Assembly: GCA_024998625.1 (NCBI GenBank)
Contig: JACOEL010000021.1
Coordinates: 114-64,113 of the forward strand
Origin: Nitrospira sp.
Lineage (GTDB): Bacteria; Nitrospirota; Nitrospiria; Nitrospirales; Nitrospiraceae
Direction: 5' to 3'
DNA: 64,000 bases
A program made the position numbers and the translations under genes. Shown here piece by piece: positions 58,543 through 64,000 of the stretch. The notes under the pieces were generated by a model. The model was not told the origin of the DNA. It saw only the letters and a program-made list of their open reading frames with translations, and did no database searches. How positions within the stretch are numbered: the first letter of the stretch is position 1; every line of letters begins with the position of its first letter.

Positions 58543-60183
58543 ATGGCAAAGCAATTGTTGTATAGCGAAGCGGCACGGGCGGCCATCCTGCGCGGGGTGA
58601 ACCAGCTCGCCGATGCCGTCAAGGCGACGCTCGGTCCCAAGGGCCGGAACGCGATTTTAGATAAGAAGTTCGGCGCCCCGACGATCACCAAGGACGGCGT
58701 GACCGTGGCGAAGGAAGTCGAACTGAAGAACCCGTACGAGAACATGGGCGCCCAGCTGGTTCGCGAAGTCGCGAGCAAGACGAGCGATACGGCCGGTGAT
58801 GGAACCACCACCGCCACCGTGTTGGCCCAGGCCATCTACCGGGAAGGCGTCAAGAACATCACCGCTGGTGCCAACCCGATGGAAATCCAACGGGGCATCA
58901 ACAAGGCCGTCGAAGTTGTGATCGCAGAGCTCAAGAAGCTCAGCAAGCCCTGCCAGAACAAGACCGAAATCTCCCAGGTCGGCACCATCTCCGCCAACAA
59001 CGACAAGACCATCGGCGACCTCATCGCTGAAGCGATGGAGAAGGTCGGCAAGGATGGCGTCATCACGGTCGAGGAAGCCAAGTCGATGACCACCTCCCTG
59101 GACGTGGTCGAGGGCATGCAGTTCGATCGCGGCTACATCTCCCCCTACTTCGTCACCAACGCCGAGCGGATGGAAGCCGTCATGGACGAGCCGCTCATCT
59201 TGATCAACGAAAAGAAAGTCAGCAGCATGAAGGACCTTCTCCCGGTCCTCGAGCAGGTTGCCAAGCTCGGCAAGCCGCTCATCATCATTGCTGAAGAAGT
59301 CGAAGGCGAAGCGCTTGCCACCTTGGTGGTCAACAAGCTCCGCGGCACCCTCAACGTGTCGGCGGTAAAGGCACCGGGCTTCGGCGACCGCCGCAAGGCC
59401 ATGCTGGAGGATATCGCGATCCTGACCGGCGGCCAGGTCATTTCCGAAGATCTCGGCCTGAAGCTCGAGAACGTCAAGCTGACGGATCTCGGCCGCGCCA
59501 AGCGCGTCACGATCGACAAGGACAATACCACGATCGTCGAAGGTCATGGCGATCCCAAGAAGATCGACGGCCGCGTGAAGCAGATCAAGGCTCAGATCGA
59601 AGAGACCACCTCGGACTACGATCGCGAGAAGCTGCAGGAACGGTTGGCGAAGATCGTCGGCGGTGTGGCCGTCATCAACGTTGGTGCCGCGACCGAGACC
59701 GAAATGAAGGAAAAGAAGGCGCGCGTGGAAGACGCCTTACACGCCACCAAGGCAGCCGTCGAAGAAGGCATCGTTCCCGGCGGAGGCACGGCCTATCTGC
59801 GCTGTCTCAAGGGATTGGATGCCCTCAAGGACCTGCCCCTGGAACAGAAAGTCGGCGTGGACATCGTACGCCGGGCGCTCGAAGAGCCGGTCCGTCAGAT
59901 CGCAGCCAACGCAGGAGCCGAAGGCTCTGTGGTGGTCGGTCGGGTCCGTGAGGACAAGAATCCGAACGGCGGTTACAATGCCGCTGCCGACGAATACGTG
60001 GACATGATCAAGCTGGGCATCATCGATCCGACGAAGGTGTCGCGTTGTGCCTTGCAGAACGCCGCCAGCGTCGCGGGTTTGATGCTCACGACCGAAGTCA
60101 TGATCACGGAATTGCCGGAAGAGAAGAAAGAACCTGCCGGTGGCCATGCTGGTCACAACCACGGCATGGAAGGTATGTACTAA
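58543..60183 (+). CDS. groEL: Chaperonin GroEL
   Basis: [34 protein letters not shown]. Confidence 0.99.
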
Positions 60184-62064: not shown

Positions 62065-64000
62065 ATGCTGCACGCGAACCCAGACCGCGACCAGCTCCTT
62101 GCCACCTTGACTCCCCTCTGTCAGGGCATCGACCGCGACATCCTGCAAGACTTCGTCACGCGGATGGACCCGGATTATTTCTCCGCCTTTCCGCCGAAGA
62201 CATTCGCCGCGCACGTCAAGCAGGCCGCCATCCTTACACCGGACCACCCCTGTGACGTGTCGATTCAAGCAACCGCAGGAGGCCACTTCATCATCACCAT
62301 CGTGGCCTACGATTACTTCTCGGAATTCGCCACGATCTGCGGGCTCCTGTCTGCCTTCGGTCTCAACATCGAGGAAGGTCGCATCTTTACTTCGGCAGAA
62401 AGTGAGCAACCCAGCCGTAGCCGATCTGCCGATCCGTACCCGATCAGGACAAGGCCGCAAGGTCGCCCAGGACTCACCCGGAAGAAGATCGTGGACGTGT
62501 TCACGGTGAGCCCCATCGAGGGGCAGACGTTCGCCGCCGCAGATCGCAAACGCCTGACCGACCAACTCGCCCGCATGATCATGCTGCTTGACGAAGGGCA
62601 ACTGGACGAGGCCCGGCAACAGGTTAACCGCCAATTGGTCGAACACCTGGGCAAACGCCGGAGTTCCTTCAGCGGCCTGCTCCACACCGTCCAGATCACC
62701 TTCGACAACAGCCAGTCGGCAACCGATACGATCATGGACATCCGATCCGACGACACGCCGGCGTTTCTCTACGCGTTCGCGAACGCGCTCGCGATGCGCA
62801 ACGTCTACATCAGCAAGGCGCTGTTCGCGATCGAAGACGGCAAGCTGCACGACCGTTTCTATATCCGCAACCGCTTCGGGCAGAAACTGCTCGACCCGGG
62901 CGACCTGGAGCAGCTGCGCCTCACCGCCGTGCTCATCAAACAGTTCACCCATGCCCTCACCTGGGCGCCCGATCCGGCCAAGGCGCTGGAAGCCTTTGAC
63001 CAGTTCCTGGACCTCGTGCTCGAAAGCTCGCGTCAGGCGGGACGAAAACAGGCCTGGGCCTTCGTGAAAGACAAAAACACCTTTCCGCTCCTCGCGCGGC
63101 TGCTCGGCGCCAGTGATTTTCTCTGGGAAGACTTCCTCCGCCGGCAACATGTCAACCTGTTGCCGTTGCTGAAGGACTATCGCGACGCGCCGCTCATCAA
63201 ATCCCAGGCAACATTACGAAGGGAATTGAGCCGCGCCATCGCCAAAGCGAAGACCGACGAGGCGAGGAAGGAAGCCCTCAACCGCTTCAAGGACCAGGAA
63301 CTCTTCCGCATCGACATGAAACATATCGTCGAACCGGAGACGAGCCTGCCCGACTTCTCGCTCGCCATCTCAGAACTGGCTGAAGTCATCGTCGAACGCA
63401 GCCTCGTCGACTGCCAGGCCAAGCTGACGAAGCTCTACGGCAGCCCCCGCTTGATCAACAAAAAACCCTGTCCCTTTGCGATCCTGGGCGCGGGCAAATT
63501 CGGCGGCAAGGAAATGGGCTACGCCTCCGACATCGAGGTGCTCTTCGTCTATGACGGGCCCGGACGGACCAGCGGCAAACAGGGCATCGAGAACAGCGAA
63601 TACTTCGAGCGCCTCGCGCAGGAATTTTTGCAATGGATCGAAGCCAAACAGGAAGGCATCTTTCACATCGATGTGCGGCTGCGGCCTCATGGCGGCAAGG
63701 GATCCCTCGCCAATGCCTTTGATGAAGTCTGCAAATATTACAGCGCGGAGGGGCAGGCCGCTCCCTTCGAGCGGCAGGCGCTCATCAAGCTACGCCATAT
63801 CGCAGGAGACGCCGCCCTCGGGAAGAAGGTCGAAGGCCTTCGCGACAGCTTCGTCTACAGCGGCGCCCCCTGGGACCTGTCGATCGCGCTCGACCTGCGG
63901 CGTCAACAGCTCAAACAGCTCGTCGAGCCGGGCCAGATCAATCTCAAACACAGCCATGGCGGTATCGTCACGCTGGAATACGCCATCCAGTACCTGCAGG
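62065..64000 (+). CDS. Tandem-ACT + GlnE adenylyltransferase-type module fusion, truncated by the window end
   Basis: Read by hand from ATG 62065 to the edge: two GlnD-like ACT units (AYDYFSEFATICGLLSAFGLNI; SDDTPAFLYAFANALAMRNVYI), then GAGKFGGKEMGYASDIE, DVRLRPHG, FERQAL, NLKH..GG. Confidence 0.88.
   Translation, partial: MLHANPDRDQLLATLTPLCQGIDRDILQDFVTRMDPDYFSAFPPKTFAAHVKQAAILTPDHPCDVSIQATAGGHFIITIVAYDYFSEFATICGLLSAFGLNIEEGRIFTSAESEQPSRSRSADPYPIRTRPQGRPGLTRKKIVDVFTVSPIEGQTFAAADRKRLTDQLARMIMLLDEGQLDEARQQVNRQLVEHLGKRRSSFSGLLHTVQITFDNSQSATDTIMDIRSDDTPAFLYAFANALAMRNVYISKALFAIEDGKLHDRFYIRNRFGQKLLDPGDLEQLRLTAVLIKQFTHALTWAPDPAKALEAFDQFLDLVLESSRQAGRKQAWAFVKDKNTFPLLARLLGASDFLWEDFLRRQHVNLLPLLKDYRDAPLIKSQATLRRELSRAIAKAKTDEARKEALNRFKDQELFRIDMKHIVEPETSLPDFSLAISELAEVIVERSLVDCQAKLTKLYGSPRLINKKPCPFAILGAGKFGGKEMGYASDIEVLFVYDGPGRTSGKQGIENSEYFERLAQEFLQWIEAKQEGIFHIDVRLRPHGGKGSLANAFDEVCKYYSAEGQAAPFERQALIKLRHIAGDAALGKKVEGLRDSFVYSGAPWDLSIALDLRRQQLKQLVEPGQINLKHSHGGIVTLEYAIQYLQ

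Follow-up and report, generated by a model that had tools for sequence, protein, structure and literature searches.

At the far end of a 64,000-nucleotide stretch of Nitrospira sp. DNA (assembly GCA_024998625.1, contig JACOEL010000021.1; the whole stretch is referred to as the window), two divergently transcribed genes each encode a single module of GlnE, the enzyme that adenylylates glutamine synthetase (GS), and one of the two proteins carries in addition a tandem pair of ACT domains of the GlnD type. An original prediction, made from the letters of this DNA, had proposed such a division of glnE into two divergent single-module genes 70 bp apart, and Pfam matches, the coordinates of the open reading frames (ORFs) and the start positions of homologues all bear it out. 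The features of the locus are given below, with AR for the removase and AT for the adenylyltransferase type of GlnE module.

60180 to 61994, minus strand: glnE-AR, coding for a 604-amino-acid single-module GlnE protein of removase type (from ORF, Pfam, NCBIfam and tree)
61176 to 61229, minus strand: nucleotidyltransferase motif of the 604-amino-acid protein, residues 256-273, with the AR signature Asn and D-x-D
61995 to 62064, no strand: divergent spacer of 70 bp between both start codons
62065 to 64000, plus strand: ACT-ACT-glnE (putatively AT-type), first 645 codons of a 758-amino-acid protein, running past the window end
62068 to 62232, plus strand: N-terminal four-helix lead, aligning with the pre-ACT linker of GlnD
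62251 to 62655, plus strand: ACT domain 1 with a disordered insert of about 30 amino acids, then two long helices
62692 to 62964, plus strand: ACT domain 2, sequence DDTPAFLYAFANAL..., the part nearest to GlnD ACT2
63091 to 63999, plus strand: PF03710 GlnE nucleotidyltransferase module (helical part and nucleotidyltransferase core) of the ACT-linked protein
63487 to 63540, plus strand: nucleotidyltransferase motif GAGKFGGKEMGYASDIEV, residues 475-492, with Gly for the AR Asn and D-x-E for D-x-D
63667 to 63687, plus strand: IDVRLRP motif, which bears the third catalytic Asp

The 604-amino-acid protein consists of one GlnE module, with PF03710 at residues 122-381 (E 1.5e-62) and PF08335 at residues 409-554 (E 2.6e-26), followed by a Pro/Lys-rich tail of about 45 amino acids. 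A plus-strand ORF stays open from position 61870 up to the window end, and its homologues begin at the ATG at 62065 (MLHAN...), which places the start codons of the two genes exactly 70 bp apart. The part of this ACT-linked protein that lies in the window matches PF03710 (E 1.3e-42), and PF08335 is present in the precomputed Pfam domains of its full-length relatives. Homologues of the ACT-linked protein, named Nitrospira or Nitrospirota, are nearly all 756-758 amino acids long, or 766 or 782 amino acids with an earlier start call. We found the complete gene, of 758 codons, in a strain whose 604-amino-acid protein is 97% identical to the one in the window; its product aligns without gaps to the 645 residues of the window at 96.6% identity. 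In this nearest relative the ACT-linked protein stops 113 residues past the window end, those residues comprise the rest of PF08335 only, and no second GlnE module follows in the complete 758-amino-acid protein. A downstream second module, which would have restored a full bifunctional GlnE and which the original prediction had named as an observation that would refute it, is thus missing from the remainder of the ORF as read from this relative.

Each protein accordingly holds one module, and neither is a two-module single chain of about 950 amino acids of the kind expected for GlnE. The PRK11072 model scored 341 bits for the 604-amino-acid protein and 153 bits for the ACT-linked protein, against an equivalog cut-off of 487. 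GlnD models matched only the ACT pair of the ACT-linked protein (72 bits against an equivalog cut-off of 959), and a Pfam search found no HD domain in it; as judged from these domain matches, the ACT-linked protein is not a GlnD.

Both genes are widely maintained. The gene order groES-groEL-(glnE module, minus strand)-(ACT-glnE, plus strand) is kept in a relative at 85% identity, and a divergent pair, here 45 bp apart, is also present at 49% protein identity amid different neighbours. Both genes are intact in hundreds of homologue clusters at 62-97% identity. Metatranscriptome contigs from sludge and bioreactors, 90-99% alike, span both genes, which is weak evidence that relatives transcribe the two of them.

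The tandem ACT domains were recognised by two kinds of sequence comparison and by their fold. NCBIfam GlnD models matched residues 79-350 of the ORF (PRK05092, E 2e-20; TIGR01693, E 6e-17), and residues 22-285 of the ACT-linked protein are collinear with residues 645-877 of a Nitrospira GlnD, covering the pre-ACT linker, ACT1 and ACT2 (BLASTP, E 1e-10). These matches agree with the two ACT units of GlnD type that had been predicted for the second protein. An AlphaFold2 (AF2) model built from 40 diverse sequences (mean predicted local distance difference test score, pLDDT, 87.4; predicted template-modelling score, pTM, 0.85) contained two ACT folds, with the insert of about 30 residues in ACT1 disordered. 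The best solved matches in Foldseek were the regulatory domains of M. smegmatis L-GDH180 (E 9e-6), followed by the regulatory domain of IlvA and by SerB2, so that model and fold search together identify a tandem ACT fold. The ACT domains of GlnD are regarded as a glutamine sensor (PMC3173338), and glutamine is a reasonable but tentative candidate for the ligand of the pair, short of being probable.

To assign the modules to the removase or the transferase type, we used ten canonical GlnE genes as references (E. coli, Aeromonas, Acinetobacter, Neisseria, Legionella, Sinorhizobium, Qipengyuania, Tistrella, Tsukamurella and Nonomuraea), cut the proteins into modules and computed maximum-likelihood trees with GlnD as outgroup. 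The 604-amino-acid protein clustered with proteobacterial N-terminal (AR) modules with an ultrafast bootstrap value (UFboot) of 100. The signature ELN[YFLV]SSD.D is present in this protein, in 10 of 10 canonical N-terminal modules and in 29 of 29 partner modules, and all three NCBIfam GlnE models placed the protein on the AR (N-terminal) half. The 604-amino-acid protein has in addition the full G-x-G-K-x-G...D-x-D and D-x-R-L-R-P motif. Its assignment to the AR (removase) type, as anticipated, is therefore well supported by motif, tree and NCBIfam matches alike. The motifs quoted for comparison in the original prediction also proved correct, with ELNFSSD in the N-terminal and ELGYSSD in the C-terminal half of E. 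coli GlnE, and those quoted for the two Nitrospira modules are present.

The ACT-linked modules formed one clade (support 97.8/99) with the motif E[LM]G[YF]ASD[IL]E, of which the part E[LM]G[YF]ASD reads as it does in the AT modules of gamma- and betaproteobacteria. All 38 of the ACT-linked modules compared have D-x-E; they have Gly where AR modules have Asn, and the D, R and P of the D-x-R-L-R-P motif are invariant in 37 sequences. Given that the catalytic G-K-G-G, D-x-E and D-x-R-L-R-P residues are all invariant, the ACT-linked module is probably catalytically active. In the GlnD-rooted tree its clade was sister to the proteobacterial AT modules (UFboot 95). This rooting, the Gly in place of Asn and the AR-type partner favour the reading of the ACT-linked module as AT type without proving it, and we regard the AR and AT assignment of the two proteins, taken together, as likely.

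Further ways of making the AT/AR call were tried and set aside. Similarity to either half of E. coli GlnE gave close phmmer scores that were inconsistent when full-length modules were used; a preference for 3K7D among PDB entries (94.6 versus 72.7 bits) proved to be a product of the truncated query; and by fold both E. coli domains fitted about equally. The canonical glnE genes themselves were taken from chromosomes filed as plasmids in PLSDB, which holds many whole chromosomes of 2-12 Mb under this heading (for example Neisseria gonorrhoeae, 2.17 Mb, and Nonomuraea, 11.9 Mb). As a separate observation from the trees, the free AR module of Nitrospira groups apart from the AR modules of GlnE proteins in which both modules and the ACT pair are fused, while its ACT-linked partner falls within the ACT-GlnE clade; the histories of the two genes may differ.

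An exhaustive profile-free search returned 9734 related representatives, the best 150 of which we sorted by architecture. With M1 and M2 for the modules read here as AR and AT, three architectures were present among these 150: A, the split ACT-ACT-M2; B, M1-ACT-ACT-M2; and C, ACT-ACT-M2-M1. Common to all three is an ACT pair placed immediately before the M2-type module. The split form is that of Nitrospirota, and the names given with type C proteins are Spirochaetia, Deltaproteobacteria, Thermodesulfobacteriota or Desulfobacterales. When one genome for each species was scanned, relatives were present in at least 563 species genomes, and the best 80 of these were all type B, from Chloroflexota (including the cultured Anaerolinea thermolimosa IMO-1), Planctomycetota, Calditrichota and Thermoanaerobaculia. 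Of the 80 type B loci, 27 have a GS gene no more than 700 bp away and 35 have one within 6 kb, and the adenylylation loop DKDLY[DE]LP is present in 27 of the 31 GS proteins near type B loci. The strongest evidence at hand that the family may act on GS is this glnA neighbourhood together with the adenylylation loop. In the 64-kb window itself we found no glnA, glnB, glnD or other GlnE module.

Database names for the Nitrospira genes include "subunit B", indicating that annotators had noticed the split. Our literature search found no paper that joins "GlnE" and "ACT domain"; Nitrospira papers cite the gene pair by locus tag only, and a paper on plant ACR11 merely recounts the ACT sensor of GlnD. 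ACT-GlnE is an uncharacterised variant of the known GlnE system, and its new element is the ACT sensor module.

Compared with canonical GlnE (E. coli b3053, 946 amino acids; structures 1V4A for AR and 3K7D for AT), both Nitrospira proteins share the module of PF03710 plus PF08335; the AR motif ELN[YF]SSD.D recurs in the free module and the ELGY.SD of the AT domain in the ACT-linked one, and the presumed substrate, a type-I GS with a Tyr adenylylation loop, is present in relatives. Unlike canonical GlnE, the Nitrospira modules are encoded by two divergently transcribed genes and each stays below the NCBIfam equivalog cut-offs; moreover, the AT-type module has D-x-E for D-x-D, and a tandem ACT pair of about 300 amino acids takes the place of the central regulatory region. 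With GlnD, the N-terminal 300 residues of the ACT-linked protein share the pre-ACT linker and both ACT domains in the same order and fold. Unlike in GlnD, where the ACT pair is C-terminal, it is N-terminal here, the HD domain is absent and a GlnE-type nucleotidyltransferase is attached. The ACT-linked protein further differs in the ACT1 insert and in having Ser and Ala in its ligand loops, and relatives possess a separate canonical GlnD.

A further likeness is to the fused ACT-GlnE proteins of about 1150-1300 amino acids, annotated only as "glutamate-ammonia-ligase adenylyltransferase", which share the ACT-ACT-AT unit, the invariant D-x-E and an AR-type partner. In these, type B corresponds to AR-ACT-ACT-AT and type C (Spirochaetia, Desulfobacterota) to ACT-ACT-AT-AR. 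Whereas the fused proteins are one polypeptide with either module order and are often encoded beside glnA, Nitrospirota have two genes that are not beside glnA. The GlnE variants of R. rubrum and H. seropedicae offer a different parallel: their PII and glutamine inputs differ by lineage, and the AT half can sense glutamine alone. Both are canonical single-chain AR-central-AT proteins without ACT domains, unlike the Nitrospira pair.

The original prediction had further suggested that direct ACT sensing bypasses the GlnD/PII relay, and had recommended a search for glnD. The contig of the strain with the 97%-identical protein ends before the position of the nitrogen cluster. We read the relay genes from the 85% relative, which belongs to the same genus and has the same synteny. 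There, amtB, glnB, glnD, glnA, nirC, cynS and nirA lie about 13.5 kb beyond ACT-glnE. Its GlnD is a canonical protein of 893 amino acids, its PII has the Tyr51 loop (YRGQEY) and its GS has a KDLYDLEP loop. A review on comammox Nitrospira likewise lists GlnD and GlnB in the legend of Nitrospira nitrogen-gene loci (PMC6311188). Direct sensing of glutamine is, in addition, already on record for canonical GlnE, as a property that its C-terminal part has in E. coli and H. seropedicae and lacks in R. rubrum (10.64898/2026.09.02.748916), so that the principle of direct sensing is not new and only the explicit ACT sensor module is. The suggested bypass thus finds no support: to judge from the gene content of this relative, the ACT-GlnE pair exists alongside a normal GlnD/PII relay and does not replace it.

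Taken together, we propose that the pair forms a two-gene GlnE switch that would reversibly AMPylate type-I GS. The 604-amino-acid protein would strip AMP from GS by phosphorolysis, and the 758-amino-acid protein would AMPylate the Tyr loop of GS once its ACT pair is loaded with a ligand signalling nitrogen sufficiency, for which glutamine would be the most probable choice. The ACT pair stands at the place of the central regulatory region of canonical GlnE, directly before the catalytic module. The GlnD/PII relay would probably run alongside, with AmtB and transcription as its targets and perhaps the AR protein as another; it may or may not make contact with the two proteins. The domain layout and its conservation, the AR type of the free module, the GlnD-like ACT fold, the genomic association of the family with glnA and the glnD, glnB and glnA genes of a close relative are observed. 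From the comparisons above we infer that the ACT-linked module acts as an AT, that GS is its substrate in Nitrospira and that glutamine is the ACT ligand. That the pair is a split GS-modifying GlnE system is, in our judgement, very likely; the reading as a whole, with a 604-amino-acid AR protein and a 758-amino-acid ACT-gated AT protein acting on type-I GS, we consider somewhat probable. A bolder version, in which the ACT-AT protein is gated by glutamine independently of PII, the AR protein reads PII-UMP or is constitutive, and the ACT-bearing form, split or fused, is perhaps ancestral, with proteobacterial GlnE derived from it by loss of the ACT domains, appears doubtful. If it held, the opposing activities of the adenylyltransferase (ATase) and their two signals would be separated into two proteins.

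Several observations weigh against the proposed reading. An approximately unbiased (AU) test did not reject rootings that put the ACT-linked clade, or that of the proteobacterial AT modules, at the base of the tree (p 0.23 and 0.35). In the module phylogeny that had been recommended as a check, the AT-sister position of the ACT-linked clade is favoured but not proven, and the AR clade stands at UFboot 100. The AR and AT modules of the actinobacteria Tsukamurella and Nonomuraea clustered together, apart from the proteobacterial N- and C-terminal clades, and module phylogeny is hence not cleanly mapped onto activity; this pattern points to a separate duplication, to gene conversion or to an artefact of the tree. 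The GlnE part of the ACT-linked model fitted both E. coli domains (1V4A, TM-score 0.81; 3K7D, TM-score 0.74), single-sequence similarity to the E. coli halves was equally indecisive, and the second metal ligand of the ACT-linked module is Glu, not Asp. The label "adenylyltransferase-type" given to this module at the outset is consequently favoured by the UFboot of 95, the Gly for Asn and the AR partner, and is left unproven by the AU test and the ambiguous fold. Two more points concern the signal and the substrate. A Gly in the loop between beta1 and alpha1 usually marks the ligand site of ACT domains; in the Nitrospira protein it is replaced by Ser in ACT1 (YDYFSEF) and by Ala in ACT2 (DTPAFLY), while Gly occupies both sites in at least 90% of the fused relatives that were aligned, and the pair, finally, is not adjacent to glnA. 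The ACT1 domain of E. coli GlnD likewise is without the loop Gly. As a way of separating split from fused forms, the Gly versus Ser/Ala pattern was discarded, as no clean pattern emerged.

These loop residues speak for a rival that retains GS and the architecture but lets the ACT pair bind another metabolite, for instance a different amino acid, or serve mainly in dimerisation or in docking the AR protein, PII or GS to the AT module. ACT domains bind varied ligands and commonly pair up, the nearest solved folds are those of isoleucine-binding IlvA, serine-binding SerB2 and the L-GDH180 regulatory domains, and the pair occupies the site of the central regulatory region of canonical GlnE. Its sequence kinship, however, is specifically with the ACT pair of GlnD and ACR proteins and includes the pre-ACT linker, the E. 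coli precedent shows that a GlnD ACT1 can be without the loop Gly, and glutamine is the established AT signal in E. coli and H. seropedicae (10.64898/2026.09.02.748916). We therefore see this alternative as unlikely, yet as the one with the most to be said for it. More unlikely still is a true bypass, with glutamine as the sole signal to the ACT-AT protein and GS modified without GlnD/PII input. The canonical glnB, glnD and glnA cluster about 13.5 kb away in the 85% relative, where no relay gene is missing, and the naming of GlnD and GlnB in the review legend (PMC6311188) speak against it; yet the presence of the relay does not show contact with either GlnE-type protein, the region that in E. 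coli GlnE conveys the action of PII has given way to the ACT pair, and GlnB-independent AMPylation is reported for H. seropedicae (10.64898/2026.09.02.748916).

That the roles are swapped, with the ACT-linked protein as removase and the free protein as transferase, or that one of the two targets a protein other than GS, such as PII, seems very improbable to us. The unrejected rootings, the ambiguity of fold and single-sequence similarity and a D-x-E active site unusual for GlnE leave room for it, and adenylylation of PII is reported for the GlnD of actinobacteria (PMC3612183). Against this, the Asn typical of AR modules is present in the free module, which also falls among them in the tree (UFboot 100), the family often adjoins glnA genes whose products bear the adenylylation loop, and a separate canonical GlnD exists for PII. 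An origin of the pair as a frameshifted or decaying canonical glnE, or as a chance ORF, for which we found no argument, can be practically dismissed, given two genes on opposite strands that are intact across the hundreds of clusters at 62-97% identity, the recurrence of the pair at 49% identity in another neighbourhood and the invariance of the catalytic residues.

Adenylylation of GS by GlnE is a classic case of covalent enzyme control, and the species studied so far vary in regulatory details such as how PII and glutamine feed into it. In the natural constructs of the ACT-GlnE family the sensor is an explicit module that can be separated, and in Nitrospirota, with the opposing activities on separate proteins, each activity and each signal can be tested alone. 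Nitrospira are key nitrifiers in wastewater and drinking water, where the tuning of ammonium assimilation against nitrite oxidation is of practical interest. The annotation name "glutamate-ammonia-ligase adenylyltransferase" hides ACT-GlnE proteins in Chloroflexota, Planctomycetota, Spirochaetia and Desulfobacterota, in which they are likewise common.

Some additional observations concern the surroundings of the pair. A consensus scan of the 70-bp spacer found no sigma-70 promoter, and a near sigma-54 match (TGGCGC-N5-TTCC) was dropped, as it is not conserved in the 85% relative. The spacer is otherwise almost identical in this relative, in which two TATACT boxes are kept; one of them precedes the ATG at 62065 by only about 10 bp and hints at a very short leader. 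Downstream of ACT-glnE, the strain with the 97%-identical protein directly carries a gene for a Fic-domain protein (373 amino acids, DUF4172 and Fic), Fic being another family of AMPylases, and the 85% relative has genes for a hypothetical protein and a major facilitator superfamily (MFS) protein instead, so that the region past the window end varies between strains. On the other side, groEL (58543-60183, plus strand) converges with the gene for the 604-amino-acid protein (60180-61994, minus strand), and the two have 4 bp in common at their stop codons (60180-60183), an overlap that is identical in the 85% relative. Further upstream, before groES, an ORF of 519 amino acids (56311-57870, plus strand) has relatives carrying PF20254 (DMFA2_C), and its synteny is kept in relatives, beside a sigma-70-family gene.

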